DNA of 50,736 nt, the filler included, from Bipalium vagum (lineage: Eukaryota), in assembly GCA_037834085.1 (NCBI GenBank). It is 3 parts of 3 records of this genome, joined end to end, with 100 filler letters (N's around TTAATTAATTAA, not from the genome) between each part and the next. Parts side by side here need not be neighbours in the genome. Positions count along the whole stretch, not along the records: positions 16,601 to 34,166 come from JBBMKC010061007.1; 2 more parts are not named here. One strand, written 5' to 3'. The notes below the pieces were generated by a model. That model worked only from the letters and a program-made list of their open reading frames with translations, was not told the DNA's origin and did no database searches. The position numbers and the translations under genes are program-made. This document shows positions 3,797 through 47,222 of this stretch, one piece after another (position 1 is the first letter of the stretch; every line of letters starts with the position of its first letter).

Positions 3797-3824
3797 TGCA
3801 CAACATTGAGTACCACGAGAAAAT

Positions 3825-6800: not shown

Positions 6801-9620
6801 ATGATCAGTTCTTGGTTCTTCCGAGTCTTGTGGATTTTGACACAGCGGTCAACCTGTGTAAGGAGAAGGGAATGAGTCTCATCAGGATCGATGATGCCCA
6901 AACAAATGTAAAACATCTCTCTGCAAAGTATTCTCGATTGATAAAAGTCTAATAACCTTTAGGAGCTTGTTTACCAATATGCCAAGAAGAATAATTTGGA
7001 CAGACATTGGATTGACGCGAATGACAAGACGAACGAGAGACAGTTTGTACATGTCGATGGGACAGGGCTCCATTACTTGTACAGCTTTCATTACCTTTAG
7101 TAAAGATATATTTATTTGGAATCGCCCTGTTCAGCAACTGGAACAAAACCGAACCCAGCGATAGGTCTCACGGAGAGAATTGCGTATATAGCGGAGCATT
7201 TCGACAAGGGTTGTGGCATGACTTTGGATGCAATGCCAGAATGTTTGGAATCTGCAATAAGACTAAGATATCAGTCAATGAAGACCCTTTCTACATTTTA
7301 CCGGAACGTGTTGGTTTTGATACAGCAGTCAGGCTTTGTAACGAAAAGGGCATGAGTCTTATCAGGATCGACGATGCTCACACAAATGTAATAATACTCC
7401 GTTCATGCGTTCTCGACGAACCTTTTTAATCACTTCTAGAAACTTTTTCATCAATATTCCATAAAGAAGAACTTGGACGAGCATTGGATCGATGCCAGTG
7501 ACAAAAACAAAGATGGTGTATTCGTTCATTCTGATGGTACCATGGTCACTTACACGTACATTTTTATTGTTTTATAATCATTAATATTTACGTCAAATCG
7601 TTGGGATCAGCAACTGGGCAAAATCTCAACCAGATAAGAGGGGTGGAATTGAGGACTGCGTATTCAGTGGAACTCGCAGAGAAGGGCTTTGGCACGATAG
7701 AATTTGTGGTAATCCCTTGTTCGGAGTGTGCAATAAGACTAAAGCACCGATCCATAATGATCAGTTCTTGGTTCTTCCGAGTCTTGTGGATTTTGACACA
7801 GCGGTCAACCTGTGTAAGGAGAGGGGAATGAGCCTGATAAGGATCGATAATGTTCATACAAATGTAACACATCTCTCTTCAAAGTGATCAGAATATATGT
7901 CTTCTAATAACCTTTAGGAGCTTGTTTACCAATATGCCAGACAGAATAATTTGACACGACATTGGATAGATGCCAATGATAAGGTCCAAGAACGAGACTT
8001 CGTACATGTGGATGGGACAAAACCGCGTTATTTGTACAGCTTTTGTTACCTTTAATAAATGATTGTTTATTTGAAATCTCCATGTTCAGGAACTGGAACA
8101 AAGGCGAGCCCAACGATAAGGGTCATGTACAGAATTGTGTATATAGCGGGACAGAGCGTCACGGATTGTGGCATGATTTTATGTGCCATGCCAAAATGTT
8201 CGGAATCTGCAATAAGACTAAAGGGCCCCTCAATGATGACCCCTTCTATGTTCTACCGAAACGTGTTGGTTTTGACACAGCAGTCAGGCTTTGCAACGAA
8301 AATGGCATGAGTCTCATCAGGATCGATGATGCTCACACAAATGTAGGACTCCTCGCTTTATTTACTCTTTCAATATTTACATTTCTCACAACCCTTAGAA
8401 CCTTGTTCACCAATATTCCAAAAGAAAGAACGTGAGCCAACATTGGATTGATGCAAATGACAAAATCAAGGAGGGCGAGTACGTCCACATCGATGGAACA
8501 AAACTGTCTTACATGTACAACTTGGATTTTACCTTTTGTCAGTACTTGTTTTTAATTTGAAATGACCTTGTTCAGAAACTGGAACGCAAATGAACCAAGT
8601 GATCGAACTCACATTGAAAACTGCTTATATACCGGAACGGACCGTAGAGGGTTTTGGAACGACAGGAACTGCAGTGATCCGATGTTTGTAATTTGCAATA
8701 GAACGGAACCATTCCTAAACGACAGTCGGTTTTTTGTCCTGCCAGAACTTGTCGACTTCCCAACCGCCGTCCGACAGTGTCAGGAGAAAGGTATGACTCT
8801 GACGAGGATTGACGACCCTGAGACAAACGTAAAACATCTTTCGGTTTTCGAGTTTTCTATATCTCTCAACTGGCTTTAGAAAGTGGTCCTCGACTTTTCC
8901 TTAAAAAAACGGTTGTCGCATTACTGGATTGACAAAACCAAAGAGACAGAACTAGCTCAGATGAATGGCAGCTCGGTTGCTTATACGTAAAACGTTGCTT
9001 GTCTTCATGGTAAATATTTTTGGGAAAATTCTTCGTTTAGCAACTGGTATCCAAAACAAGAAATTCAACCGAAACAAAGTTGTGTGATCAGTGGAATTGG
9101 TTTGAAGGGTCTCTGGTTTAAGGTAACATGTTTGGCGAAATCTTATGGCATCTGCAATGTAACAGCTCCACCACCCGTTGCCAAACAGCTTCCTGACGCA
9201 CCGAAAACGTTCGACTATTCCACGGTCATGAGACTTTGCAAGGAGAAAGGTAATAACCTAATCAGACTCGACCAAGGAGATCTGAAAGTAAAAATGATTT
9301 TCGTTCTTTGTTTTTGTGAAAACGTTGATAGGACTTTATGTTCTTCGATGATTTGAACCTGATGAGAATAAACTTGAAATCTGTGAAGACAAAGATTGAA
9401 AGGATAACCAACGATGACAGCCTTCTCATTTTCAAGTATGATTGTGATCCTTTTCGATGGCTTTGATCGAAATGATTTCAGCAGTGAGAATGGTTCGTTC
9501 GGTCCGGAAAATGAAAGGGGCGATGAGAATTTATCAGAGATTTTAAGATTTAAGAATGAAATCCTGAAATATTTGAAGCTGGAAGGGGATACATATGTGG
9601 TCTGTTATGCAGATGAATAA
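3825..9620 (+). CDS. Secreted multi-domain C-type lectin, 12 tandem CTLDs (10 canonical, 2 degenerate), ~1493 aa, 26 exons
   Basis: All introns are GT-AG, 42-61 nt, and the frame is open throughout. Exons: 3825-3900, 3943-4061, 4114-4229, 4272-4524, 4570-4685, 4742-4994, 5056-5171, 5221-5473, 5526-5641, 5699-5951, 6007-6122, 6179-6431, 6484-6599, 6655-6907, 6963-7078, 7135-7387, 7440-7555, 7611-7863, 7918-8033, 8090-8342, 8399-8514, 8576-8828, 8880-8986, 9041-9287, 9332-9435, 9482-9620 (sum 4482 nt). Signal peptide MATNFKLIVAIFVIFIYVDLTLA. Each domain has F..A...C...G..L..I, WID, W...(E/Q)P(N/D/S), C, W(N/H/S)D..C, C. No TM segment. AATAAA overlaps the stop codon. Confidence 0.93.
5907..7818 (+). 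repeat. Near-identical 956-bp direct tandem duplication (two lectin modules) inside the lectin gene
   Basis: About 5907-6862 matches about 6863-7818. ORF-track translations at offset 956 are identical or nearly so (e.g. 6160/7116, 6645/7601), and the introns are included. Confidence 0.95.
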
Positions 9621-24145: not shown

Positions 24146-27100
24146 TTACGTTTTGATATTAATAAGTTGGTGAAAATGAAAATATATTAATATTTATTAA
24201 TCATATCCGACAGATTTAAAAAAAATTAAAAAAGACAAAAAATTATTTTATTAATTAAAATGTTTTCACATTAATTTAAAATATTTTTAATTTGCTTTAC
24301 AAAACGAACGTTTTGTAGTTTTATCCTAATCTTTCGGATAGAAAATGATGAAATTGTATAATTTTAATTTCTTTAACAAAAATTCAAATATTAAAAGTAG
24401 TAATTTTTATAATATTCATGTATTTATTTTAATTTTCAGAAATATCCATTAATATAATTTCTATTCGTTATTAATGTGAAAATTTTATAAAATCCATTAA
24501 GTGTCTATTTATTCAATAAAGTGTTATATGAACTTAATATTGATTGTTTGGTAATTTCTTTTGACTTTAAAAAAAATCATTTTTCTCTGAAGAAACATTT
24601 GTTTTCTCTTGTTTTTATACTTCCATAATACTCAACTTCCACTATTAACATATCTTTTCCAAAAATGTAGAAGGTCCACTCGAATTTCATAATTTATAGC
24701 CATTTTACTTAAGAGCTAGCATGAATATTAAAATAAATATCTATAAAGTTAACCTTACTATTTTATTAATCAATCTATGTTAATTTTCATTCAATAAATC
24801 AATAGTTTATTAATCCTTATTATAAAATTATTTAGCTTTAATGTGGAAATATCAAAAATGATCATTTTTATGGGACACAATAATACAATAGGAGATTATG
24901 ACAATGTACAGTTAGACATTCAACCAATTGCAGGATTACGAAACCCATATAGGTCATAACTAACAGTAGATTTTGAGACATGATTTATTTAATGTCAGCT
25001 TTTTATTTAACAGCAGTCAGCAGGAAATATAATCAGCAATCACGGCTTAGTTCAAAAGCTATCAAAGTATTAACAACAATGGTAATAAATACTTAACAAT
25101 AGCATCTACTTTTAAAAATTATAAATCAAACAATTGTGCTTATTCAAGCAAATTACATGTTCTAGTTCCACGATTTTAATAAAATAATGTTTTAAAACAT
25201 TAAATTTTAATTTTAAAATAATTTTTCCATAATAAAACTTAAAAATTGTTGTTTTCATAAATATTCACATCGGTTACGTTAATTTTTTTTATTGAAGGGA
25301 CAAGAGACCTAAAGGTTTTTATCCCAAAATTTTCAACATGTATTTCATTTGCTGTTCGATTTTCCATCTCATTTCTCTCTTTTTATTTCTATTATTTTTT
25401 CTTCACCCTTCCTTCTAATTGGTTAATAATGGGTATTTTTTCATTCAAGATGATTCTTCTAATACTGCAAACATATATACGTATTTATGTATTCAAAGGG
25501 ATCCATCATTTGAATTATCACAAATTTAATATTTCTGGCGACTATCACTGCCTTTCGTAATTCTTTTTCCTACCTCATTCCAATTTCTCTTGTTCTTCAT
25601 GTCCTTTATATAATATATGGTTACTTCTGCTGCTGCATACACCAAGGATTACTGTTTTTTCTTAATCATTTCAAAAAGTAACCATTAAAATTTTCCTTTT
25701 AAAATTTTAACCACGTTATTTCCCCTCAGAAATTAGAGTTGACTTCATCTTCTGTATTCTATAGAATCATTTTATTCACGTATCTACAAGTACTCCTTAC
25801 ATTAAGAAACCCTAATATCTTTATTTTTACATCACATAAATTAATAAAAAAAGATTTTTCTTTGTTCTTCCCATAACTTTATTAGTACTCTTACTTTTTT
25901 GAACATGTAACAAAACATTTTTAGAAAGTAAAATGCCTTGATTTTACCACTTCTTATTCTTTTCAAAAGATTGTTATTGTTTTTTCAAAACCAAGTAAGT
26001 CATTGTGTTTCTTAGGACAGTTCTTCTTCTGCTTAGAACGCTGGTTTGTTACGGTAACTATGTTAAAATAACTGGATCATACCTATTGTTTGAATCTGTT
26101 ATACTGGAACGCAACTACTTTTAAATTAGAAATTATATTTAAAATATTCTTCTTTGAAAACCCTTTCGCTTCGACTTAAATCGTTTACTAAAATCTAACA
26201 TCTTTCTTTTCTTCTTTCAAGACGATATTCAAAAGTGTATTTCAATTATTATTAATCCTTTCACTAACGGTATAGTATCAACCATACCATAACCATCTTT
26301 TTTTGTAACAATTTTAAATTATTGTATTGCCTTTCCTTAAAGTTGCAAAGGAATCTTCAAGCTTTCACAACAATTGAAAGACTGGTTATTTCAGTTTCAT
26401 GTTCCATCAATTTCATTCAATCAATATTCCACGAATCTAACAACAATTTTCAATTGCCTTCATTTAATTATTCTTCCGGTTTCTCGTTTCTCTCCCTTGG
26501 TAATATGATCTTTTTTCGTTCTTTATGACTTAGGATTTTTCTAAATTTTTCTAAAACACTACGTATATTTTATTTGACCAGTTCCTGCTTATATTCTCTT
26601 TACCGTTCCAACTGTCGCAGAACACCTCCTAAAATGTCTTATCTTCCCGTTTTCCCTTGAGAGAGAATTAGATTTTGCGAGTGGTCCTTATATTCTCTCT
26701 TCTAAGCCCTTTTTACCTCTGTGATTTCGGATGGCTCCCACCTCTCAACACTTCTGGAAGCTCCAGAATTTCAGAAAAAACAGAAGTTAGAAAGATATTT
26801 CTTATCAGTTGAAAAAATACCATACTTCACTTGTTTCGTTATCTATACTGGTGGCTATGTTACCAGGCACAACTGTTCAGACAGAAAATGCAAATATTCT
26901 ATTCATTCAACAAGTATAAATATATAAAAAGATTCGAAATCGGTTCCGTTATTTAAATGTAATATTTTAAATTATTAAAATAATTTTTCTGTTTCTTACT
27001 ATTAAAAATTCTCGTTTTTATAATCACCCAAATAATCATTATTATCATTGTTGTTATTTTATTATTATTATTGATTAAAACAAAAAAATGAAAAAGATAC

Positions 27101-27710
27101 TTTTGCTTTTATGTTTTTTCTGCTTTTATCATTTTCATATATATTTCTCCCATGGAAATTCCATAAAGAATTTCCCGAGTATGATAAAAGATATTCGTCG
27201 TTAAAGAAGACATGTGAATATATATATGGTATTCCATATATGAAATCTTGCAAGGTATGATTTTGGTTGATGTCGATGAAATATGAAATATTTCATTACA
27301 ATTGAAAAAAGGAGATAACAATGAAGACAAGAAATACAATTGTCTTCATAGTGAATTATCATTATTATTATATTATGTATAATACAACGGTGTACATCTC
27401 GGCGTAATATATGAAAATATTGATCTCTCTGAAATCTTTCTGAGAGACATCTGTCACAAATCACTATTGTTTTTGGTTCCTTTGGCTCTGAAACAAAACG
27501 ATAAAGACTTTTAACCATTGATCACCATGCTGGCATTAAAAAATAAAATCTAAAGTTATAGAAATTATGATAGTCTCGTTGATGGATGTGTCTATACATT
27601 TGAAAGGTTAACATTTGTCTTATCATTGGCTGATCTTTAAAACAATAATATGTTTAGTTTTATTACAATTCTCAAGCTAAAAGTTTCGCGTCTAACATTG
27701 ACAATTCACG

Positions 27711-29129
27711 ATGAAATCGTTGGATAAATGTCTTATAGCTTTTGTATCCAGCTTGAGCTTTTTTATGACCGGCATCATGGAGACGAGTCTGGTCACAATT
27801 TTGCCAAAGTACCTCAGCAAAAATCAATCCAATGAGAAGAATTTCACCAATATCTTCAATTTGTCGGACAACTCAACTCAAAGATGCTTCTATAGACCCC
27901 AGTATGTTATCATAAGTATGATCTTCATGTCAAAGGGTATCATGCAATTCATTTTCAACTCTATCATTGGAGAGGTTGTTGAAAAAATGGACAAATGCTT
28001 AGTACTATTAATTTCTCAAGCCTTAGGCGTTATTATATCTATAATTTATGGATTCAGTAATTCTATTTTTCTTTATGTTGTCGGTAGGCTAATTGATGGG
28101 TTATTGAACAGTTCAACGTTTATATCAGTAACAGCCCTGGTGGCAACCCTTTTTAAGAATGTTAACGTCAGAGGTTATTATTATGGGTTAGCAAATACTT
28201 TATTTTTCGTTAGCCATTCCTTAGCTCCACTCTACGGAGCTGAGGTGGATACGTTTATTGGGAAATCGGCCGTCTTTTTATTACTTATTCCTTTGTGGTG
28301 TGTGTTGTCAGTTTCCACCATTCTTTTACGTTTTAGAATTAAAAGCAAAAAGGAAAGGTCGAGAAAAAGTATACCAGATAATGTTCTACTTGAGGTAGAC
28401 GAAATATGTTTAGATAACGTTAAAGAACAACATAAGGGAACAGTTGAAGCACCTAATTCAACTATTAATTTGGAAACCAGAGACTTAGCAGCTGGGGAAA
28501 AGAAAGTAAAAAGCACCAAACAAAAACTACTGAACTTCTTAGTCACCTCTTACAAGATGTTGAAAGACCCAAATATCTTTGCATGTCTATTTCAAGTCTT
28601 TCTCATTAATATTACTTTGATCTCATTATCAGCAAATCTGCCGTCTTGGATGGCCTTCGCATTGTGCGCAACAGAGGTTCAACAGGGTATGGTTTGGACA
28701 TTTGGGTTCTGTGGTTATTTGATTAGTGTTTTCATGATAGTAATCATTGTGACTTATGTGCCCAAACTCAAATTATTTTCCCCCATGTTCGGCCATATTG
28801 TTGCTGGAATTCTTTGGATATTGTTGCCATTTTCCAAAGATTGGAAATTCATATTTGTTCCTATTGTTGGAATGTACTTCAGCCTTGGAATTGTTCAACA
28901 ATTTAACATTCCCCTGATCACAGATTTAGCTGATCTCAGATTTCAATCAAACCATGGAATAATGACTTCGGTATTGCAACAGGCACTGACATTTAGTGGA
29001 ATAATTGGAACGTTTTGCAGTGGGTACATTGCCCATCTATTCGGGTTCCGTTCTTTTTCCATTTCTATTGCTATCATCATTTTACTTTGTACTCCAATCT
29101 CATTGGTCCATAGAAAGATATTAAATTAG
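27711..29129 (+). CDS. Intronless MFS transporter, divergent SLC18 (vesicular acetylcholine/monoamine transporter-like), 472 aa
   Basis: About 12 hydrophobic segments and a glycosylated loop after TM1 (NQS, NFT, NLS, NST). Motifs align with SLC18: FMSKGIMQF (FASKAxxQL), LKDPNI (LxDPYI), WM...CATEVQQGMVW, LADLR (LVDxR). Confidence 0.88.
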   Translation: MKSLDKCLIAFVSSLSFFMTGIMETSLVTILPKYLSKNQSNEKNFTNIFNLSDNSTQRCFYRPQYVIISMIFMSKGIMQFIFNSIIGEVVEKMDKCLVLLISQALGVIISIIYGFSNSIFLYVVGRLIDGLLNSSTFISVTALVATLFKNVNVRGYYYGLANTLFFVSHSLAPLYGAEVDTFIGKSAVFLLLIPLWCVLSVSTILLRFRIKSKKERSRKSIPDNVLLEVDEICLDNVKEQHKGTVEAPNSTINLETRDLAAGEKKVKSTKQKLLNFLVTSYKMLKDPNIFACLFQVFLINITLISLSANLPSWMAFALCATEVQQGMVWTFGFCGYLISVFMIVIIVTYVPKLKLFSPMFGHIVAGILWILLPFSKDWKFIFVPIVGMYFSLGIVQQFNIPLITDLADLRFQSNHGIMTSVLQQALTFSGIIGTFCSGYIAHLFGFRSFSISIAIIILLCTPISLVHRKILN

Positions 29130-29960
29130 ATTAATTAATATTAATATTTTTAATTATTTATTTTAAAAATAATGGTCCATGTAGATAATTATTTATTTAA
29201 TAATTGAAATAGAATTTTTTACTTTACCTTTCACTTGTTTTATTGCTCATAAATCAAAAAAATATAAAATAATAAAAAAATATTAAATAATCATAATATT
29301 ATAAAACTAATTATAAAAAAAAACTAATAAAAAAATAAATAAAATAAAAAATAATAAACTAAATAAAAAATAAAAGTAATATATTAAAAAATTATATTAA
29401 AAATTAAAATATATTAAAAATTTAGTGGAAAGATGGCAGAAGGTCATTCATAATAATGGTGAACATATCATTGATTAAAACTGTTTATCAATAAAATTTA
29501 TGGTTTTCATTTCTTCTTAAAAACGCACGAACTTAGTTGCCAACCCAATATATCCAGGTATTCAAAATTTTATTATTATTATTTTCACCATCATCATCAT
29601 TAGTTTAACTTTGTTTAATTTGATTGTATAAGACCGTATTTTTATTATCTTTACTCTTTTTTAATAGCATTATAATATTATTAGTATAAGTATTAATAAA
29701 ACTTCTGCATGAGCACATAGATATATATAATTAAAATAAATTCTATTTTTCATCAAGTAGTCAGCACAAGCTAACATTTAATGCAAGAAACATAATCATA
29801 ATTTTTATATGTATCAATAAAGTTTTTTGTAATAAATACTCAAAGAAAAGGTGATAGAAATTCTTTAATATTTTCTTTAATCGTATTTAATATGAGGTCT
29901 ATAAGTGGAAAAGGAATCTATTTTTAATATCATCACATATCAAAAGATTGATAAAATAAA

Positions 29961-30330
29961 TAAAGGGTCTTTCAACAGTGACATCCGTATGTTTCTTCTG
30001 AATAAAAACAGAAATAAGTTTGAATTTTTTGAAGTTACATTATTTTAGAAAAAATATGAAAAAATATAATTATATATAAAACAAAATGTCATTCAAATGT
30101 CTGCCACGATTTATCTGCAGATATCAACTCGAGAATCCAAAATTTCAATTATATTTAGACATGTTTCTGTTGTTATTTCACGAACTGCTTTATGAATATA
30201 TTCCTTTAGCTTTCTTTTTGGGCTGCTTGTGTAAACCTTACTTTTCACGAAACCTAGCATGAAGAAATCCAGGGGCATAATTAAGTTAAAAGATCTCGGA
30301 GGCCAATAATGTCTGGAAATCATGAAATTA
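29961..30330 (-). mobile_element. 3' end of a rosa/Tc1-like element
   Basis: WPPRSFNL...PLDFFMLGFVKSKVY motif. The terminus at 29961 matches the one at 1731. Confidence 0.8.
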
Positions 30331-30960
30331 CATGATCATAAAATTTTGATGTTCTCTCGCGTTGTCCGAAAGGTTGCAAATTATAAATCACAAAAAACAA
30401 ATTATAAACAAACACAACAGTTTTGAAAGATTTATCTTTTAATAAGCCAGGAATCAAACGTATTTATGTCTTCTAGTTTTTCAACGATTTACTAATTTCA
30501 TTAGTACCATTGGCAGAATTTATATAAAAAAATACTGGGTGATTATTTGATGGAAGGATTTATAGCATTCTTCTTTTGTCACAATTCTTGGCTCTATTTC
30601 TAATTGATCTTCAACATCACATTCCTTGTAATCAAAACTTTTAAGTTAGTAAAGAATTTTAAAAAGATATTTTTTAGATAGAAATTCGACTTCCGATCAT
30701 AAATTTAAAATATTACAATATCTTTTATTTAATAATTTCTAATTATTAACTGCATTACTTCTTATTTCCAATATAAGATGAAAAAAAATAATGGATCAGA
30801 GATAACCATTAGAAAAAAGATAGCATTAAAAATTTTATTATAATAAACGTTAATTAATTATTAGTAAAAAAAAACTCTCGAGTTTTCCTTTTTTAAATCA
30901 ACTAAATATTTATTTAAACACGTGTTTTCTCAGTGACATTTTTCAAATATCAAGGATAAG

Positions 30961-31402
30961 ATGAACGTTTTTAGATTAATTGGTGACATGTCTCATTTAG
31001 TAGCAATTATCATATTGCTGCTGAAAATATGGAAAACTAGATCTTGTTCAGGTGAAATCTTAATATTTTGGTTGACTTTTTACCTTAATTGCCTAATAGT
31101 TATCAATTATTAAATTATGTAATCTTAATGACATTAATATAGGGATATCTGGAAAAAGTCAAATCATGTTTGCTGTAGTATTTTCGTCTCGTTATTTGGA
31201 TTTGTTTACTTCCTTTGTGTCATTGTACAATTCCATAATGAAAGTCCTATTTCTGCTCGGTACATTCATAACGGTTTATTTGATGTGGTTCAAATTCAAA
31301 GCCACAAATGATCAAAATCATGATACTTTCCGTTTTGAATTTCTCCTTCTTCCATGTGCAATTTTGGCTGTGATTGTCAATCACGAATTTTCAATTTTTG
31401 AG
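30961..31402 (+). CDS. KDELR: ER lumen protein-retaining (KDEL) receptor, first two exons only (117 aa)
   Basis: Exon 30961-31051 [30 protein letters not shown](G). Exon 31143-31402 [21 protein letters not shown]...[13 protein letters not shown]...NHEFSIFE|gtaagg. The remaining exons were not found in the window. Confidence 0.95.
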
Positions 31403-32539
31403 GTAAGGTCTTTCTGATTTTCAATGTTTAAGTGATCTTGTGATCATTTATTTTTCTCGAATCTCATACCAATTTCACAAATTATATCTTTTAAAGTCTT
31501 CACATTTTTCGTCTTTATAATAAATAGTTGATTGAATTGAAGTTAAGACCTAATCATTAAGAACAAATCATTATCAATTATTAGTATTGATTATTTTCAA
31601 ATATTGAATTTTTTATGAATTATTCTTATTATTTTGTCAATATGGATGATCATTTGATAATTATTCATAATTCATAATTAATTATTGATTTTTATTATTT
31701 TTAATTTTAATCATTATTGATCTTGTATTGATTTATTATTATTTTCAGAGATGAATAAATCAATTTTAAAAATTGCATATTAAATCACATAACTATGGAA
31801 AATAAAAGGAAATTTGATGAAATTCATCTTTAAATGTTTTTGTCCAATATAAATTTTTGGTTGTTGTAATAAATTTTGAATTAATATTTTAAAACTACAT
31901 TGCCCTAAATGAAGACTACGTCATTGGGAAAAAGTTCGACATGTGGAATAATAAAAATAATGAAAGGAAGTAATTACTAAAGAATTATTTGATTTTAAAA
32001 GAAGGGGAAAAAATCAATATTGACTTTTAAGATATTTCTGAAAATAATTGTTTCATATCAAAATTTTTTAAAAATCAAATCGATTTCATTGAATTTTACT
32101 TATATCATTCAAACATCAGTTTTTCGGCTGAGAAGTGTTTAACGAATAACTGAAAATTAGGAAAACAAACTTTTTTAACAACAGAAAACTGGTTAGAAAT
32201 ACAATGGTGATAGTTACATTCGTAAATTGTACTGAACTGAAAACTGATATTAATTTAACAATCCAGTGAAACAAAATCAACGGATATATTCTGACAAGAT
32301 GACAAATCTGGTAACAATTGAAAGAACAGTTCTCAACTTGTGGACATGGTCCACAGGTATTGAATTTTCCAAGTAGACATCGAACAAAGTTAAAACATAT
32401 ATATATATATATTATTCAATAGAAAGAGAGTTCTTAAGCAAGTCCTTCAGCCACTCTTCTGATTTATTTGAATATCATTGACAAATTAGAAGAATGCCTG
32501 AATTTAACAAATACATCTTGCGACATCCAATTAACTGGT

Positions 32540-32943
32540 CACTGACTTTCTTGCTCGCACATATGTGGAAGTTTTGGATTGGCCAGAACAAAGGCCAGAC
32601 TTAAATCCCATTGATCATCTATGGAATATTCTCTTTAGAAAGGTAACAAGAAAGAAACTAAACAGTCTAGGGAAACTATTTTATGAGTTAATTAATGCTT
32701 GGCAGCTCATCACTCCAGAGGAAACCAGCAACTTGGTAGAGTCCATACAACGCCATGTACGGGAAGTTATTGCATCCAAAGGTCTGCAAACAAAATATTG
32801 ACGGTGCATGTGAAATTCCAGTTTTTATGTATACTAATATTAAATGTGTTTGAATATTTTTGTATCAAAAGAAATAAATATCAAGTTTTCTATTATTTTG
32901 TTATATTATTTGGGTGTGGTCATGAAATTTTTTCAACACTGTA
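32540..32943 (+). mobile_element. Tc1-like transposon 3' end
   Basis: VLDWPEQRPDLNPIDHLW...VIASKGLQTKY*, followed by a terminus ending ...tttcaacactg-TA. Confidence 0.88.
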
Positions 32944-34342: not shown

Positions 34343-34992
34343 GTTAAATGATTTCAAAAGGTTTAAGAACGTAATTATTGCATGATTGATTTCATTTTTA
34401 AAAATTTTTGCTGTTGTAGTCGTTCGTTTTAGATATTTACCTGTGGATCTTGACATTTCTAATCAGTTTACATTGTTTAAACATCACATTTGCATGAAAT
34501 ATTATTTTGTTAATTTTTTGTAAAGGGCTGTAACATTTCATTTGGCTTGATTATATTAGGCTGAAATCTGTCTTACTAACTCACCTTTAAATTAAAACTG
34601 TTTATGATTAATAATTATGATTATAATCATTATTATATTATTTTTATTTATATTATTGTTGATTATGTAATTCTTATTATCATCATCAATATTATTGTTT
34701 TGATAGAACTAAAAGCAATGTGAATTCGATTTTTGTTTTAGCCCGAGTAAAAAAGGACATTCTGGTGCTCCATTCACGGTGGCTTCTTATATGAAATGGG
34801 TATCATTTTTATGAAATTTGGACCTTGATAATATAACAGAATTAGAAATAAATAATTGACAATCTTCTATTTTTCCTTTTCTCTGTATAATATGATTTGG
34901 TGAATAAATAAATGATGAACGTTTACTGATTTTTTATCCCTTTTTTGTAAAGTTAATAACTCTCCCAAATTAAACTGGTATATAATTCACAG

Positions 34993-35529
34993 CTGTCGGA
35001 TCAGGAGGAGGAGTATATGAATGATCGCGGAGATGACCTTGATGAAGTAAATTACCCAATGAGCAATACACCTAGTACCAGTTTTGCTATTCCAAATAAA
35101 GTAAGAATAAAAAAACCTGTCAGTACTAATGTTAAACGAAATTGGTGTACATTCGAAGACAAAAATGAAACGGGAAATGAAAGTCAACTGACAAATGATC
35201 AACTGACAGGTATGAGATTTTTCCATTAAATTTCCATTCTTTGGTTTGGGCAGGGTATTTTCTCGACGAATTATCGCGCGATATTACATTGTCTTGCGAC
35301 TTAATCGATCCTAATAACCCCGGTCTGTATGAAGAAGAAATCGATGGTCCAGAGCTGGCCAGGCTCATTCGTCGAATGAGACCGCGAGATTTGTTTTTGA
35401 CTGCTGAGAATGGCGACATATTGGCATCCGCACATTCCACCATTCTTGTTGGCAAGACAACCACTTTGCCGGAGAATGATTCTACTATTACAAACATGTA
35501 CAATAAAATACACGAAAATTTAATGAAAG
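34993..35529 (+). CDS. Two internal coding exons, possibly the upstream part of the Gadkin-like gene
   Basis: cag|34993-35209|gtatga, a 44-nt phase-1 intron, then cag|35254 to ~35529 or 35537. Acidic sequence LSDQEEEYMNDRGDDLDE...NWCTFEDK...GYFLDELSRD; GC-richer than the flanks. Confidence 0.6.
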
Positions 35530-38500
35530 GTGCTAATGTAATGATTTAAATATTTCTATCGTTAAAATTATTCATTTTTATTATTATTTTCAAAAATTGA
35601 TCTGATATAATCTCGTAACTTTTAAATGTTTCTTCAGAGAACATTATTTATTTATTTTTCTAAATAAAAATTGAAATATCTCTGCCATTATTTGTTTTTG
35701 ATCAAAAATTGATTCATGCTGTTTGAAAGTATGTTGTTAAGATTCAGAAATGGAGATGAAATAAGATGATAACAAAAGTTGTAAAGTGATCGCGATATGA
35801 AAACACTTGTCAGTTCACAAAAAACTAATTTTTTGAAAAAATCATTTCAGTTTAAAGATAAAATAAAAAGCTAGACGATGAATGGGTCAATGAAATGGAA
35901 GGTCGATTATTTTTCACAGTTTTCCATGTTTATTGAAAGTTAAGATGTGTGAATCGTTTCAACTTGTGATGAGAGAGCATGGAAATCTAATGTTTATCCC
36001 TAGTTTTAGGAATTGAAATGTAAGCACGTAGTCATTTTGTGACCATTCACATTTGTTGGTGCTGAAACAAGTTAAGTTATTTTCAGAAATATTCTAAAAG
36101 ATAATCAAATAACATTTAATGAAGATCAGGAATCAAGGAATCTTATTTCTCGGACATCTCCCTTACATCTTATGTGTTAGAAAGCTCTGCTCATTGTGTT
36201 ACCATAAATTTACTATTTAATATATACTATCATTTACTAATGAAGAAGATTGCGTCAATTGGTGCAAACCATTATTCTAAAATTTCACCTGAGGAATGTC
36301 AAGACATGATTATAAATGAATTATGAATATATATTCATGTCAATCGGAAAAAGGAGCAGTGAGTAAATATAACGACAAGTAAACTTTATCAACCAAAGTT
36401 GTTAGATATCGGAAAACTTTAAACAATTTTGACTGATTTGTAACAACAAAAGTTCTATAAGATGGTCGTATAATTATATATCACAGTTTGGTTTTCTTTA
36501 GTCCTCAATTATTGGTAAAAAAAATAACTCAATGTGTAAATCATTCGTCAACACGATGTCATTATTCTGGCCGATCTAAAAATCGAATTAATGACGCATT
36601 AAAACCATTGTTATATTTTCATCAAAAACAAATTGTCTCAAAGAAGTTGTAGAGGTATTCTAATCACACCTTTCGGTTATTCTGGTTTTGAATTGGAGTA
36701 AATGCTTTAAGGAATGACTAGAGCTAATAAAAATTGTTGAACAGAAACTGTCATTTATTCGCAATTTTAATTTTGTATTCCCAAAATTCTTCGACTGTTC
36801 TCGTAATTCACTAAATCCTACATATTTTTATTTGATTTATGCTGATTATTATGAATTGAGGAATTTAATATATTTTTTTGAAAATCGCAGTTGGGCCAAT
36901 TATAATGGATTGAAAACTTAGAATATTTGAATAGTTATTGAGATCAATTGTGGAACCTTTACATTTTTTAATCAATGAAAAATATAGTTACACCTCTCAC
37001 AGCATCATTGCTTTTGGCATATATTTTTGATTTAAATGCCGCATTTTCTAACGACCAGGAAATCTTATCCACTACATATATCTATCAATCCGGCACAACG
37101 CAAACCTTTTCTTCGAGTGGATGAAGTCTTCGATCCGACGAACAGCAGCAACATTATATGAGCACACGGTATGGTGTCAATACCAATGAGATTTCATATT
37201 CCTCACATCAGAAGCAGAAGCCTCCAACAGCTCTGGCCTCAATAATGTGGTCCGGCTGTCCAAGCTACCAATCGTCGTAGAATTGCTTATGCTATCAAGT
37301 GATATGCTAGCAGTCCTGGCAGGTTTCAAAGGAGTGCTAAAGTCCCTTATTTTCAGAAAATAAAACAATTTTTAAATGTGACCGTTAAATCAATTTTTGT
37401 CTTGAAAAGTTTTTGTATCACCTCTGCTGCTAATTGAAACTAATCAAACAATCTTTAATCTATTAATTAGAAATTTTGAATTTCTAAAAAAATCGAAAAA
37501 TTGAATTGATTAATAGATTACAAATACATCAATAACTATATCATTAAAAGCAGTAAAACGAATGGTTTAATTTGATATATCCACCTATAACAATTATTAT
37601 ATGATAGAAAAAATAAGACACTTTAAATTTTGTGATTTCTTTATCGGTTTTATTTATTTTGAAATTTTAATGTTTAATTATATTTTATAATTTGGTAAAG
37701 TGTCTCAAAAACGTCTACAAACATAAAATTGGCCAAATTTGAGAAATATATAAATCAAATAATGAAAGATTATTTATAATATATATATAAATTTTAAGTG
37801 TAAAATAATATATAACAAAATTTGATCAGGTCAGCAACACAAAATATTTTTTTAATAATGAATTGTTATTTTAAAATGTTTTTTCACTTAATTTTAATTT
37901 TTGAAATTTTTTTTAATAAATAATCTTTTTGAAAAATAATAATATTTGATGAAAATAATCTTTTGTAAAAAAACTAAATTAACACTTCACCATAAAACCA
38001 TTAAGAACATTTCAAGTGGATTTTATCATTTCAGCTTGACAAAAAAATTTAATGTAACATTTTAATTAAAATTTTATGCAAAATAAATTGAAAAAAAATT
38101 TCCAAGTGTTTAACAGAATTTATCCTATTGACGATTTTTTTCGAAATTTTTATACATTTCGATACGAAAATATTTTTGTCTTGTTAATGAAGAAGAATAT
38201 AAAAGTGCATTATTAAATAGATAAAAGGAATAAAATTCGCAGAGGTTTATTTTATGCATTTCTGAAGATTAGCATTAATGTCTCTCTGTTAAGATGACTG
38301 CCTTGAAGACTACGGTGGTGATGGTGAAGGGAATATGTAAATTTAACCGGCTTAAGGAATGAAATGAGAATTTAATTTGTCAAGCATTATTTCAGAGATT
38401 AAATGTGCAGTCTATTTTTAAATTGGAGTTAAGCTTTTTGTTTTGGGATCTCTTAGTACAAATGCTAATTATAAATCTCCTTCCTAACAGGATACGTGGT

Positions 38501-39084: not shown

Positions 39085-42000
39085 GTATTAGAAATGTTCA
39101 CAGCGTCACTACCAGTGAAAGAGATCATTCATCAGTTGATCTGGATTGGGATCATGAGCCAGGTAAATGTAGTTTTATTATTTAAAATAACCGAAGTACT
39201 TTTTAACCCAGTTTCAGAATTTTAAATGTTAAATAAATCAAATTTCAAAGGGAATAATAATAGAGAAATTGGGCATTTCTTTTGACAATTTAATTGCTCA
39301 TTTATTATATCTTTGTTTTTGTTTTTTTTTAAAGAAAATTATTTTTGTCAGATTATTGAATCCATTGATTTTACAAAAGTTATCCAATACTTGATTTATA
39401 CTGTAAAAGTTTCCAATATATTTATCTGCATGAAAAATGAAATAAGTATAATATAAAAAATATTTTTTTATTAATTTGAATTTTTATATTTTAATTTAAT
39501 TTAAAAATAATTTTTTTTTCGTGCAATTTTTATAAAATTATCATTTTAAAGTATTTTACAAACCTGATATGCAATTTTATGTCATTCTTCATTTTATGTT
39601 GAATATTTTTTATGATAAAGCAATAATTTTTTAACATTTATAATTTGTAAAAATTTATGTATTGATTGAAGACCAATAAATGATTTTGATCAATAAAAAA
39701 AAATTTTTAATAAAGTAAAATTTTTTACTTAAGACTGGTCGTAGAAAAAAGAGATTTAATAAGAAAAATATCTAGAAATTGTATTAAGTACTTCACAAGA
39801 TTTTATCTAAATTTTGTATTTTTTATGATTATTTTGATGAAAAATAACTTGTAATTAATTTTAACTTTAAAGGTTATATATTGATGTTATAGCCACTGTT
39901 AATGAAAGAAAAAAAAAGATTTTTCTGTTGAAATGAGAGTAAAATAATTTTCATCTCGGTTGGAGCCACGGTTAGAAAAATGATAATTAGGCTTCTCGAT
40001 ATATTGCACTCTGGTTATACTACAATAGATATTATATATTTTTTACTCTCATTTTGAAAAAGTGTACCTTCTATTAAAATAACAAAATCAATTTTGAATT
40101 TATTAACCAATATGTTGAAAAAAATTAAAATACAAATTTTATTCATAAAAGATCTTTAATCATCGATAATGGCTTCCTTATTAATGCACCTTATTATGAA
40201 ACTTATCATATGACGATAATATCATGCACAATCACTTGAAGATATTAATGTGCCAACATTAATTATAAGCTTTATTAAAGTTTTTTCATCTGATTTAAAC
40301 GATTGTCTGACGCTATTTTTAAGCTTTTCAAACATATTTTCGCAAGTGTTAAGAAACGATGAATATGGTGGAAGTAAAAGTAGCAACTGAATTCTACTTT
40401 CAATAATTTCTTTTATTTGTTGAGCCTTATGAAATGGAACATTATCCATTATGATGACAGAACGACCACGAATATCAATATCTTCAATCAATGAAATGAT
40501 ATAAAGAACAGATATTATTAAAAGGTGTTGAGTGAATTTGAAACTTAATACTGTACTAATAATTCAGTATAACTTTTTAAGAACTGAAAATGTTCATTTG
40601 TCAATTCTTTCTTTCGTACCCCACCTTTTAACATACAATTTACGCTACCTCCCTTAAATATACCTGTAAATATGTAATTTTTTAAAATATACTTTTATTA
40701 AAGCACAAACTGTTAACTTGATATTTAAAACACTAGCTATTTCTTTTTGGTATGGCCGTTGAGATACGAATCGATTATTCATTTTCTATCTTCATTTGAA
40801 AGCATGAGAGAATTTTTACAATTATTCAAAAATTTTCCAAACGTATTTAATTATGCGTTTGAACGAATTTAAAATTGATTTTCCTACTTTCAAAGTGTAG
40901 CTTCCCAACTGTACATAACAGGTGTGACCTTTTCATAATTAAATTTGACTTTGTTTATATACATTAAAAAGTTTAAATAATCATTTTATTATTTGAAAAT
41001 ACATATTTCAATCCCAAAGTTTCTTGGCAATAAAAAACTTGACAAACTTTTGGTATTCATGTGGCATGATTTATTAAAATTTCCTTTGAGGATTTTCTCG
41101 ACAGCAGCACATCAATTAACTTAGTTCAATTTGTGGTGATAAAACCCGGCCCAAAGCCACTATGTTCAAGGATTTTGATGGTGGTCGTAGTTTTTGCCGG
41201 CTTTTGTGAATTTGTCCAAAGAAATTCTTTAAAAATGTAATTATGGTGCATCAAAAGCGGTTTACAACATCATTACAGGTAACGAATCTTGGATATTTGT
41301 GTATAAGCCAAAAGACAGCAGTCATGTGTGCAGGTCTTCTAAGATGATCCAAAGCCGACAAAAGTAGTTTGTGCTAGAATCATTTAAAATTAAGTGGTAA
41401 CCTGTTTATTGGAAAATTTAGACATGACTTTAGGGGATCATAGAATGGTTAATTCTGAATTTTACAAAAATACATATATGTTAGAAATTTTGGAGAAATA
41501 AGAAAAATTGAAGATTTTGAATTATTTCCCATCGAGACAATACCAAATAAAAAGCTGTACAGCAAACAGCCAGATTTTTGAGTGTCAAAAAATCGAATTA
41601 ATCAGTTATTTCCTAACGATTTCTTTAGTCCAATATGTGGAAAAACTGAGTGGACAAAGAGGATGCTATCGATTAGTTGAAAACTCATGATTCCGAAAAA
41701 AGAAAAGCGTTTTGAAAATTGGTTCCCAGGTTTGCAAAGATGGATTCATCATGGGGAGAATCATGGAAACATCAGACCACGTCACAATATCTTTCAAATT
41801 TTATAAATAATGTTTACACCAATTTCGACAGATCTTCAACTGTTGGTTGCATCAAAAATAGTTGTTCGACCAGATGAAAATTCTTGGATCCAGTTATAAA
41901 TGTTTCCTTTAGACCTGTTGAAGCTGATTAATAATTTCTTTATTACCAGATTCATTGAGAAGTAAAAACGGACTATACTGCTTAATTCCACATTTTCGAA

Positions 42001-44865
42001 TATTTTTTTGAATCAATATAGTGTAAACAAAAATTAGAATATTTAAACTAATCGTAAAATCTTATTTAAGTAGCTTCAATATTTCTGGCAGAGTCTAAGT
42101 ACTTTTTAGCCTGATAAGATATCTTAAGTTTTTGACTCAAAATTTAATATGAATTAAACAGCTTTTTTACATAATTCCATTAAGTGTAATTAAAATCATT
42201 ACCAGATTTTTATTTAATAGTTTTTGTTTTAGTATTTTTTGTTTATCATATTTGGATATTGCAATTCAATAGTGATAATTGAAAAATAATAATTTTTAAC
42301 ATATTACCTCAATTCCCAAAAACTTTTATAGATAATTAGAGGAAATTAAAAAATTGTTCTTTAAGCTTTGTCCTAAGACAATTGAGTTGAATTAAAACAG
42401 TAATCATTGTTAAAAATTGTTTGTACAGAGGAACTGTTAGAAATTATAACATTAGGCTCTCCAAATAACGAAAGAAAGATCAAACTTAAACTTTATAAAC
42501 TTTTCAATAGTTTTACCAATTCTTTTGAGATAAATGACAAGTTCCAATTTTTTTATCACAATTTTGAAAAATAGAAAAAATCTTTTATTTGATATTCTTT
42601 GAAACATGATAAAGCGTCAAATCAAAAAACTGTAGACTTGTTTGATTTAGAATGTCATTCCTGTCGTTACTAAATCTGAAAGTTTTCCTCTCAGGTAGAG
42701 TAATTATAAAAAAGCACTGAAAACAGGACTCCTGGTTTAATTAAAAATTGTCATATGATATTTAATTATTTTTTGTAAGTCAGCTCACTTAATGAATAAG
42801 CAGTACTGCTTCAGTTAAGCAGCGAAAAATAAATAAGACTAAGATATTTGAATAAAACCTGATAGACATTTAGTCCAAAATGACAGTAACACTGTTTACA
42901 ATATATTCTGTTTCGAATGAGCAGATGTTGTACAAGCCACCGCATAGGCTCCATGAGATGATTGCTGAGATTAATAAACATCAGTCTTCTTACAAAATAT
43001 CTTCTTGGGTTAAGATGACATTGAAATCAATGATCGACGTTTGAACACTTGGTCTATCGTTCGACATGACTGATTTACTTGAAATTAAAATAAATTCAAA
43101 TATTATGCGTAGTACAACGAAATGTGTCAGAAAATGTTATAAAAAAGGATATTTACAAATATTTTACACTGCTTAACTGAAGGATTACAGAATAAACGTT
43201 TAAGTAACGATTATACGAGGGCTAATGAAAAAGTAACCTTAAAACACATTTATTTTATTTTAAAAATTAATTCACATTTGAGCGTTAATGTCACTTTTCA
43301 ACATACTCCTCACTACGTTCAATGCACATACTTAATTAGAGCCTGAAATCTTTTGGCTGATTAGGAATCGACTGATGTACTACTTTTTGAGCTTTAATTC
43401 TGAATCGAACTTTCTTCCTCCTAGTGCTGCTTGAGTGACCCAAATCAATGAATAAGCAGTATGTGGCAAACATTAAATTTTCAGTCCTTTAATTTTATTC
43501 ACTGTAACATGGGCAGTATGTGGTTGTACATTATCTTACCGTAATAGGACACCACGACTAAGCCGTCCACGTCACCTTGTATGGGTAGAAGGTTTTATAT
43601 GACTTTGAATTATATCTAGAATACGATGCACTTGTTACATACAGTAGATGGTAAACTGTCTTGGAACTCATCTGACAGACAGTTTTTGATATTTTAACAC
43701 ATCGTGGATAATGTAATGGATTGAGCCATGACTTAGCATCATTTTAGAGGCTACTTCATCAATTATTATCCGTCTGTTTTCACATAAGATGTGATGAATT
43801 TCGGAAATTTTCTCGGATTTTCAGCTGAATTGTGTCATCCGCTTTGGAACTTCCGATATCATTCATATACCTGTTGAAGTGATAAACAGGCATCCCCATA
43901 CTTTGATAATATTTTGCTATTAATATTAGCAGGAATTTCGCCTTCACAGCCTAAAAATCGAATTATTACATGTCATCATTTTAATGCGATTATTAAAACA
44001 AATGCGAATATTAATCATGGGTATGAATTTTTTATTTATTGTTAATGTGTTTACTTATCAAATAAAAGGAATATGAAATATTTACAATTTTTTTTATTTT
44101 TTACAGGTAATTTAAGGTTACTTTTTGACTTACCCTCGTATAATTAATATTACTTTTGTAATTGGTCCTGTGTTAAAACGATAATTAGAAATAAATTTAC
44201 TAAAAATCTATGTTTCTATCAAAGGAAATCTGTTACGTTGACAGATTACTTAAAACGTAATCAAAACATTCTGGTCGTCCTAAACCGGCTCTCCTTCATC
44301 AGTTAAGAATTATTTGACTTAACGATTAGTTCGGGAACCATTTAAGGTGAATAGGATAATTTCTCCAGTAAATTTAATTATTTTAAATTTTATTTAACTT
44401 TATCTTTATAATTTACACAACTGATGATTTATGAAATTTTATTTGTATTGTATTCCAGGTATGAACCCATCCTTAGCTTTGATTCATAAGCGAACGGACA
44501 CCGAAGAAGATCTTATTAAACGACTTAAGTCGGAAGAAGTGAAAGATATGGATACCTCGACTCTAAAAAGCAAAAAAGAATCATCAAAGAATCCAAAACC
44601 AAATTCAATCGATCAAAATCACAGGGAAATTGTCAAGAGACCGCTGTCAGTATCAAATGTCAATAATGAAGAATGCTCTCCCTCTAAAATTTCTCCTACT
44701 GATTGCACTGATGAATTTGTTTGGGACATGGAAGAAGATCTTTATACGGGAAACTTCAATCATTTATCAGAATATGAGGTTTCCTATCCATTATATCTTC
44801 CTAATGGTTGCTGCTCATCAGATCCAGTCTATAGTGATAAACGCCATCTACTTTCCGACAAATGA
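39085..44865 (+). CDS. AP1AR: AP-1 complex-associated regulatory protein (Gadkin/AP1AR)-like, last two exons
   Basis: Exon ~39085-39162 (..HSSVDLDWDHEP G|gtaaat) splices in phase 1 to 44459-44865 (cag|GMNPSLALIHKRTDTEEDLIKRL...DEFVWDMEE). This parallels the Gadkin C-terminus as recalled: SLDLEWEDEEGMNRMLPMRERSKTEEDILRAA...GLEWEND. Confidence 0.7.
40130..40520 (-). mobile_element. Tc1/IS630-like DDE transposase fragment
   Basis: VIIMDNVPFHK...LLPPYSSFLNTCENMF motif. Confidence 0.85.
41040..42115. mobile_element. Decayed mariner fragments
   Basis: IITGNESWIFVYKPK at about 41270-41312. A mariner-like terminus gtactttttagcctga-TA lies near 42099-42116. Confidence 0.55.
42804..43187. mobile_element. 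~380-bp non-autonomous element with terminal inverted repeats
   Basis: cttcagttaagcagcgaaaaata (42809-42831) is the imperfect reverse complement of tattttacactgcttaactgaag (43160-43182). TA lies just outside both ends. Confidence 0.7.
43214..44140 (-). mobile_element. Internally deleted mariner with both TIRs and TA target-site duplication
   Basis: TA-cgagggctaatgaaaaagtaaccttaaa ... tttaaggttactttttgacttaccctcg-TA. The interior has minus-strand transposase remnants (IIRFLGCEGEIPA, DNVQPHTAHVT). Confidence 0.85.
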
Positions 44866-45788: not shown

Positions 45789-47222
45789 ATGAAACAACAT
45801 GAATTTGGGTATGGACAGTTCTTCGTCAATGTGTTTCTCATCATCATTGTCTTCGACTCGTTTGTTTGTGGTGAATCGAGATTTTTGTCGACTCAACAGC
45901 GAATAAGACAGAAGCTTCTGAATCCGAAAGTCTACAAAAAACAAGAACGTCCCGATGAAGTCAAAACAACAATGGTTAAGGTTTACATGAAAATTTTGGC
46001 GATAGATTCTGTCGACGTTCGACAAATGCAATACAGTACGGATGTCTATCTGCGTCAATCGTGGTTTGATAATAGACTCCGATGGGAAAATATTGAACAG
46101 TTTAAACATTATAATGTCAATATTGTTTCTCCGTCTTTGAAAGACAAAATTTGGCTTCCAGACTTGTTTTTCAGAAATGGTAAGAAAGGTTATATCCATA
46201 ATATGACTACACCGAATTATCTCATGAGAATTCAGCCGAACGGTGAGGTTTTGTATAGTCAAAAACTTACGATGATATTTTCTTGTCAAATGGAACTGCA
46301 GGCGTTCCCAATGGACACTCAAAATTGTGAAATCAATATTGGTAGTTATGGATATACTTTGGAAGAGCTGAAGTTTTATTGGAGAACTTATGAAACAATC
46401 ACAGTTCAAAAAGATCTGAAAATTCCAGAATTTGATACACCTAACGAAATCAAGACAATAGATTGCACAAAAAATTCTGCTACACAAACGGGCAATTATA
46501 CATGCTTGAAGGCCATTTTTCAATTAAACAGGCAATTAGGCTCGTATCTGGCAACAACTTACATCCCGAGCATGCTGATCATAATGGTTTCATGGATGAG
46601 CTTTTGGGTCAGTATTGATGCTGTTCCAGCCAGAATCACACTAGGTCTCCTATCTCTTTTAGGAATCGTGAACATGGCTATTTCTATGTCTACCAGTTTG
46701 CCCAGGGTCAGCTATATTAAGGCGATCGACGTCTGGTTGATTGCTTGCATAATATTTGTGATCGCTGCTTTGGTTGAATTCGGTATCGCAACCTCAGCAA
46801 TAAAAAAGAACAAATTTAAGACTTGGGAAAGCGATGTGTGCAACGTGATCAGAGAGGAAATAACGTTAATGCATACTAATTTTACATTGATAAAATCAGC
46901 AGGTTCAAGTGAAAAAAAAACCAGCAACAAAGTGGGGATTCTGGTCAATGTCCCTCCGAAAAATGTGCCAATTTTACCACCAGGAATCGATATGTTATTT
47001 AGTAAAAACCCCAGTCAAAACGAAGCCTTACTCAAAGAATTAAATGATCGAAATAAAATGTCAAAATTTTCCCTGAAAAAGACAGGTTATGCTAGATCGA
47101 AATCTTCTATCGATTCATCGATCGACAAGTACAGCAGATTTCTATTTCCCACGTGTTTCGCTCTTTACAACTGCTTCTATTGGCTCTATTATATTCGCTT
47201 AGTAAGATATAGGGATGAATAG
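45789..47222 (+). CDS. Intronless Cys-loop ligand-gated chloride channel subunit, GluCl/GlyR-like (probably lophotrochozoan GluCl), 477 aa
   Basis: Signal peptide; WLPDLFF; Cys-loop CQMELQAFPMDTQNC; second disulfide CTKNSATQTGNYTC; M1 YIPSMLIIMVSWMSFW; anion-selective PAR motif; VSYIKAIDVW; M4 IDKYSRFLFP. Confidence 0.95.
   Translation: MKQHEFGYGQFFVNVFLIIIVFDSFVCGESRFLSTQQRIRQKLLNPKVYKKQERPDEVKTTMVKVYMKILAIDSVDVRQMQYSTDVYLRQSWFDNRLRWENIEQFKHYNVNIVSPSLKDKIWLPDLFFRNGKKGYIHNMTTPNYLMRIQPNGEVLYSQKLTMIFSCQMELQAFPMDTQNCEINIGSYGYTLEELKFYWRTYETITVQKDLKIPEFDTPNEIKTIDCTKNSATQTGNYTCLKAIFQLNRQLGSYLATTYIPSMLIIMVSWMSFWVSIDAVPARITLGLLSLLGIVNMAISMSTSLPRVSYIKAIDVWLIACIIFVIAALVEFGIATSAIKKNKFKTWESDVCNVIREEITLMHTNFTLIKSAGSSEKKTSNKVGILVNVPPKNVPILPPGIDMLFSKNPSQNEALLKELNDRNKMSKFSLKKTGYARSKSSIDSSIDKYSRFLFPTCFALYNCFYWLYYIRLVRYRDE

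Follow-up and report, generated by a model that had tools for sequence, protein, structure and literature searches.

Vesicular transporters define transmitter identity. In VMAT2 (SLC18A2), the TM1 aspartate D33 contacts N34, K138, S196, and Q192 (bioRxiv 10.1101/2023.09.05.556211), and roles for E312, D399, and D426 are supported (PMC11695631). The acetylcholine contacts listed for VAChT (SLC18A3) are N47, Y50, M51, I221, S225, N302, L305, I394, D398, Y428, and Y432, and the Y50/L37 and S225/V232 sites (VAChT/VMAT2) are given as specificity positions (PMC11369146). Human SLC18B1 (VPAT) is without D33, D399, and D426, yet it exchanges polyamines, histamine, or serotonin for H+, and the TM4 arginine is the sole membrane charge common to the human SLC18 proteins (PMC12049414). 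As described in the accessible text of two papers, SLC18B1 D140 forms a salt bridge with R137 (equivalent to VMAT2 R189), R137 is released towards the cargo on protonation, R137A or D140A cripples transport, and the authors liken the R137/D140 pair to the D33-R189 network (PMC12049414; PMC13490608).

In flatworms, eight slc18a genes were reported from Schmidtea mediterranea (Vu et al. 2015, PMC4500094). In the accessible part of that study, slc18a-4 and -7 match VMAT at 1e-160 and 1e-156 and slc18a-6 matches VAChT at 1e-149, whereas slc18a-1, -2, -3, -5, and -8, five of the eight, show matches of only 1e-12 to 1e-19. Expression of slc18a-1 is in the brain and photoreceptors, that of slc18a-3 in the brain, photoreceptors, and mesenchymal cells, and that of slc18a-2 and -5 in the brain and pharynx; a discrete pattern is absent for slc18a-8. 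The RNAi cell for slc18a-1 is blank and the table gives no function, and the strings slc18b and slc45 are absent from the accessible text of supplementary file 1 (PMC4500094). A search of the openly available literature returned no paper with accessible text on residues or function of the divergent slc18a genes. They are not mentioned in the supplements of PMC11801701 and PMC5055395 (12/13 files) or in the accessible text of PMC7883486, PMC12258702, and 10.1101/2023.01.20.523817, and the SLC18 phylogenies in PMC10244343 and bioRxiv 10.64898/2026.10.09.757917 make no mention there of Schmidtea, Macrostomum, or flatworms. The divergent family is cloned and, from these sources, apparently unassayed. 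Because the slc18a genes were cloned in 2015, the novelty here lies in the residue-level reading and not in the existence of the family; neither the residue-level re-wiring nor the parallel to SLC18B1 was found described in the openly available literature searched.

The window, that is, the whole stretch of Bipalium vagum DNA analysed (50,736 nucleotides, filler included), is AT-rich and eukaryote-like, with GC mostly at 21-41%. Translation of the transporter gene (Table 1) gave 472 codons from the ATG at 27711 to the TAG at 29129 without an internal stop, exactly the intact frame claimed in the preliminary description. The minus strand of this interval contains stops throughout, and when positions 25001-32000 were shuffled 200 times, stop-free runs reached at most 138 codons. 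Positions 25000-29309 are found as one contig of the public DNA run X1 with 0 differences and 0 gaps; because run X1 possibly derives from the source sample itself, the identity argues only against a copying error. A sequencing error at Q396 was considered, and the single DNA run X1, possibly the source sample, gave no sign of one. The ORF protein matched MFS_1 in Pfam (2.8e-24), and NCBIfam gave nothing above cutoff, only sub-cutoff drug-efflux MFS matches. The closest named relative is Schmidtea slc18a-1 (UniRef A0A0H3YJ27; 45% identity, 99% of the length covered), a kinship that points to a planarian as the source. One unnamed protein is closer (47% identity), and the two closest relatives carry Glu at the TM10 site. 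The loop following TM1 is predicted to be luminal, with sidedness taken from SLC18 topology. Identity of the central loop to the two closest relatives is 9/70 and 13/70; against the 9/70, the helical halves are identical to those of P0002 at 71/146 and 109/188 positions. Positions 28668-28705 are also found, with 4 differences, in a second X1 contig (3790 nt), whose flanks carry, by eye and in frame, the same TM7-TM8 motifs, so the same organism probably has a paralogue of this subclade, which would leave room for relaxed selection on this copy.

Table 1. Features of the window, with positions along the whole stretch
Feature	Position	Strand	Description
Divergent SLC18A (MFS) transporter ORF	27711..29129	+	472 aa, single exon; subclade of Schmidtea slc18a-1
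T20	27768..27770	+	VMAT2 D33 / VAChT D46 site; acid gone in 9/9 inner-clade proteins
E24	27780..27782	+	New TM1 acid at VMAT2 L37 / VAChT Y50 site, pocket-lining
Post-TM1 loop, aa 37-64	27819..27902	+	Weak conservation; four N-glycosylation sequons
K75	27933..27935	+	VMAT2 K138 and corresponding VAChT site, kept; Lys or Arg in 12/12 clade proteins
R126-x-x-D129, TM4	28086..28097	+	VMAT2 R189 kept; VMAT2 Q192 site now acidic
R154	28170..28172	+	VMAT2 R217 / VAChT R210, cytosolic gate arginine, kept
H169	28215..28217	+	VMAT2 V232 / VAChT S225 specificity site; His in 3/4 subclade proteins
Central loop, aa 211-280	28341..28550	+	Low model confidence
S307	28629..28631	+	VMAT2 E312 / VAChT E309 site; acid in 1/12 clade proteins
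Q396 (CAA)	28896..28898	+	VMAT2 D399 / VAChT D398 amine-binding site; Glu/Asp in 9/12 clade proteins
D408	28932..28934	+	VMAT2 D411, gate partner, kept
Q423	28977..28979	+	VMAT2 D426 / VAChT D425 site; acid in 0/12 clade proteins
KDEL receptor gene	about 30961-31414	+	Next gene found, ~1.8 kb downstream; exons 1 and 2
GlyR-like pentameric ligand-gated channel	45789-47222	+	Intronless, 477 aa; best PDB matches glycine receptors (3e-77)
Multi-exon gene, tandem C-type lectin-like domains	about 3800-9400	+	GC above surroundings
Broken mariner/Tc1-type transposase and RNase H-like retroelement remnants	19216-20235, 32535-32798, 40225-40563, 21273-21649	+, +, -, -	
Coding-like open frames	34960-35546, 44431-44865	+, +	Convincing Pfam match absent

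Nesting of the transporter inside the KDEL receptor gene was rejected, since the first exon of that gene begins near 30961. Canonical VAChT is linked to choline acetyltransferase (ChAT) in the cholinergic locus. A ChAT exon was sought among 118 ORF fragments of at least 45 aa (107 plus 11 of the longer ones in the window, not every fragment) and gave no match, a scan that shorter exons would escape. The GlyR-like channel has a PAR motif ahead of M2, and such a motif is typical of anion channels. Within the C-type lectin-like gene, one segment is duplicated almost exactly (about 5930-6950 and 6890-7880). No functional link between the transporter and the other genes of the window was apparent.

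A homologue profile search over 1.84 billion representatives gave 432 matches, of which the best 150 were taken. In total, 154 proteins were gathered, 127 were at least 330 aa long, and 108 had enough columns for a first tree, where this protein fell in a long-branched group. Twelve clade members were picked after viewing that tree, with P0156, the longer protein, standing in for a discarded fragment of the same cluster. The named members are four, namely Schmidtea slc18a-1, -3, and -5 and a Macrostomum lignano protein; as seven members besides this one are unnamed, to speak of a flatworm clade is to extrapolate. A mixture-model tree of 37 rows, rooted on a coral protein, united the 12 proteins (clade support 100/99) and set them with VAChT (100/100), and a forced union of the clade with VMAT was rejected (p-AU 0.0007). 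With a very long-branched outgroup, a quick tree of 54 rows placed the clade at the base, an open fork. As to the phylogeny proposed in the preliminary description, nesting within SLC18A on the VAChT side is supported by the coral-rooted tree, with the root position tentative in view of this basal placement and of trees that contained no SLC18B1 row. A comparison of orthology to slc18a-1 with orthology to its sister slc18a-8 did not separate the two (p-AU 0.28).

PDB sequence matches of the ORF protein were VAChT or VMAT constructs in 16 of 16 cases (best 3e-23), and the clade profile matched VAChT at 7e-82, VMAT2 at 6e-71, NorA at 3e-19, and SLC18B1 at 1e-10. An AlphaFold model (mean pLDDT 89, from a 93-row alignment including canonical members) was superposed on known structures, as had also been proposed. 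Its best matches were VMAT2, VMAT1, and VAChT, with the top Z of 47.6 on VMAT2 8jtc (rmsd 2.5, 385 residues aligned), a match that does not separate VAChT from VMAT; the full MFS fold superposes on SLC18 structures, and the TM4 arginine is also present. When the clade alignment was used for a further homologue search, three clade members already known came back, and beyond these the matches were weak, those with names being bacterial MFS proteins. Judged by sequence, the protein is a divergent SLC18A paralogue, closer to VAChT/VMAT than to SLC18B1, and profile scores, fold, and tree bear out the earlier view of a re-wired SLC18-like paralogue. Orthology to SLC18B1 was rejected on the profile scores (1e-10 against 7e-82 for VAChT) and on the TM7 acid D255, whose site is S307 here; a 40-aa query used to align TM4 directly with SLC18B1 found no match.

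The register against human VAChT was set by phmmer for TM2-TM5 and TM7-TM12 and by the clade profile for TM1, and was cross-checked by MAFFT on 93 and on 127 proteins and by hhalign (probability 100). T20, S307, Q396, and Q423 fall on the VMAT2 D33, E312, D399, and D426 sites in every alignment covering them. The four replacements first read by manual alignment (D to T, E to S, D to Q, and D to Q) were reproduced by phmmer, MAFFT, and hhalign, with no Asp or Glu at any of these sites; likewise, the TM2 lysine and TM4 arginine said to be retained are K75 and R126, and the new acids said to have appeared in TM1 and TM4 are E24 and D129. R126 corresponds to VMAT2 R189 and is invariant in the 12 clade proteins. 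The E24 site is Glu in three of the four subclade proteins, with the acid one residue earlier in the fourth. The extra TM4 acid of VAChT, D193, is lost too (F137 here), and N302 and L305 are the only two of the 11 VAChT acetylcholine contacts that are identical, the other nine being changed. At the site of the cytosolic gate tyrosine Y422, Tyr is found in 0/12 clade proteins, and a dileucine-type sorting motif was sought in the protein and not found, for which reasons vesicle targeting is only putative. Over 30 cavity sites mapped from alignments and not from coordinates, the net charge is 0 in this protein and in P0005, against -1 in slc18a-1 and -2 in P0002; of the canonical rows tallied, those of VAChT have -3 and those of VMAT -2. 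The mapped pocket sites of the C-terminal half hold no acid here.

Within the clade of 12, D33 is kept in 3, E312 in 1, D399 in 9, and D426 in 0, and an acid three residues after the TM4 arginine (R+3) is present in 9. The corresponding counts among the 81 other SLC18-like matches listed are 67/72, 70/81, 66/81, and 54/80, with the R+3 acid in 1/81. For the 83 proteins among the matches listed that are ungapped at the four sites, all four acids are present in 34, one in 8, and none in 4 (this protein, P0005, P0025, and P0143). Loss of D33 and gain of the TM4 acid fall in the same nine rows, each as one change, on a branch with support 98/91, and the three early-branching clade members have D33 together with Gln or Asn at the TM4 position. 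The swap is one event, and the 9/9 are therefore not nine independent cases; moreover, D33 is absent without a TM4 acid in 5 of the 81 outside proteins listed, so that the swap is not a universal rule. On these alignments, cavity re-wiring arose more than once among animals. The TM10 (D399) site is patchy, with Gln here, Ile in P0005, Lys in P0025, and Glu in Schmidtea slc18a-1 and P0002. Since its acid is kept in 9/12 members, slc18a-1 included, losing all four acids is not the clade rule; the earlier title announcing that loss was correct for this protein and overstated for the clade. Besides the acids, the subclade is marked by Glu at the Y50/L37 site and His at the S225/V232 site. Outside the clade, matches with lost or shifted acids are P0088, P0112, P0143 (zero of four acids), P0039 (an amphioxus protein), P0072, and P0129.

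The earlier premise that antiport needs the four acids fails, because SLC18B1, without three of them (D33, D399, and D426), is still an H+ antiporter by way of R137/D140. The somewhat favoured reading of the present protein is that of a proton antiporter whose acids have been relocated and whose cargo is other than acetylcholine. It would be a vesicular proton-coupled antiporter of flatworm neurons, the proton site having likely shifted from TM1 to TM4; as VMAT2 D33 contacts Q192 and K138, the acid would have moved to an adjoining site. D129 would pair with R126 and perhaps with K75, and luminal protons would neutralise D129, freeing R126 towards the cavity and expelling the cargo as with R137/D140 of SLC18B1, where the equivalence of D129 and D140 is drawn from the R+3 count from the published R137 = R189 and not from direct alignment or distances. 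In most clade members, the TM10 Glu/Asp may still bind the amine. In this copy, with Gln in TM10, E24 would be the sole free acid and the likely substitute amine site, and H169 or R126 could accept a polar or acidic group of the cargo. The neutral pocket would suit a small amine or zwitterion, and coupling would be reduced relative to VMAT2, fewer protons being used and the concentration gradient reached being smaller. Expression in neurons and photoreceptors is presumed from the reported pattern of Schmidtea slc18a-1. Function as a working pump is likely, and the cargo is probably some signalling molecule; the conserved helical halves and the retained R217/D411-type gate pair fit a working transporter. 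Counting against an antiporter are D255, E83, and E171, which SLC18B1 keeps and this protein does not clearly have, and the net cavity charge, which is 0 here but -2 or -3 in canonical members.

The same neutral cavity, shared with P0005, would suit a carrier uncoupled from protons (a uniporter or one driven by the potential) for neutral, zwitterionic, or anionic cargo, in which E24 and D129 only neutralise K75 and R126. The absence of the four canonical acids and of VAChT D193 points the same way, as does the abolition of VMAT2 transport by E312Q (bioRxiv 10.1101/2023.09.05.556211), but the closest relatives retain the TM10 Glu at net charges of -1 and -2, and protonation at the R-x-x-D pair has been demonstrated in SLC18B1 (PMC12049414; PMC13490608), making such a carrier unlikely. 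A uniporter, an anion carrier, or a non-transporting partner had been the first choice in the preliminary description, and all are rendered less likely by the R126/D129 pair and by the TM10 acid in 9/12 clade members; the neutral substrate suggested there, or a zwitterionic one, would agree with the cavity tally of this copy. It is quite improbable that this is a duplicate confined to its lineage and under weakened selection, transporting weakly or not at all, or acting as a non-transporting partner, with the work left to a sister copy. The frame is open over its full length, helices and loop contrast in conservation, the gate pair is retained, and the end branch of 0.52 is near the 0.50 of Schmidtea slc18a-1, all of which speak against relaxation; the likely paralogue in the second X1 contig, the codon of Q396 lying a single base away from Glu, and the key role of D398 in VAChT binding (PMC11369146) speak for it. 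Least probable is a second, low-affinity acetylcholine or monoamine transporter co-loading a known transmitter, for despite ancestry on the VAChT side, the kept W329, N300, and Y336, the vesamicol binding retained by VAChT E309Q and D425N (PMC11369146), and the rank of acetylcholine as the main planarian brain transmitter (PMC7883486), 9/11 listed acetylcholine contacts are changed, Schmidtea already has a canonical VAChT and two VMATs by the accessible account, and the scan of window ORFs turned up no ChAT exon.

With the relocated-acid antiporter as the preferred reading, it is conceivable, and put forward tentatively, that a VAChT-derived subfamily expanded in flatworms, re-invented an SLC18B1-type TM4 switch, with pockets rebuilt differently from paralogue to paralogue, and loads one or more undescribed small-molecule transmitters in brain and photoreceptor neurons. 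If this were true, the present copy would load a transmitter with zero of the four canonical acids, and every paralogue would single out a class of neurons that uses an undescribed transmitter. Being orphan and expressed in neurons, an SLC18A subfamily whose pockets have been rebuilt would offer a handle on unassigned planarian transmitters, including the photoreceptor one, and a natural test of the VMAT2 TM1 aspartate and the SLC18B1 TM4 aspartate as interchangeable proton switches; it would also bear on the minimum number of acids needed by an SLC18 antiporter. The link to an undescribed transmitter suggested in the preliminary description is plausible in view of slc18a-1 expression in brain and photoreceptors and of separate canonical VAChT and VMAT genes. 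The clade as a stand-in for a missing GABA/glycine vesicular transporter was also considered, and is weakened by two Schmidtea slc32 genes reported in photoreceptors in the accessible source text.

Among known systems, Schmidtea slc18a-1 shares with this protein the loss of D33, E312, and D426 and the gain of E24, D129, and H169, and differs in having Glu where Gln occupies the D399 site here. VAChT is the best sequence match among solved structures and agrees in fold, tree side, gate pair, and the K, R, N302, and W331 sites; unlike in VAChT, the D46, D193, E309, D398, and D425 sites are T20, F137, S307, Q396, and Q423, at ~22% identity. The VMAT1/VMAT2 (SLC18A1/2) sites K138, R189, N305, W318, Y341, R217, and D411 are kept, and Z reaches 47.6, whereas D33, E312, D399, and D426 are missing, the V232 site is His, and monophyly with the VMATs is rejected. 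The insect orphan SLC18 rows, which are taken here to be portabella-like (P0047, from Nicrophorus, is named "synaptic vesicular amine transporter-like"), resemble this protein as presumed orphan neuronal SLC18 members with Gln at the D426 site in 4/4, so the loss of single acids has precedent; these presumed portabella-like rows differ in keeping D33, E312, and D399 and in lying on the VMAT side of the tree. VPAT (SLC18B1) is likewise without D33, D399, and D426 and has a TM4 Arg/Asp pair at i, i+3, with R126/D129 matching R137/D140 by spacing, whereas its sequence match is far weaker and the TM7 acid (D255, equivalent to E312) is kept only in VPAT; the likeness in mechanism to SLC18B1 is probably convergent.
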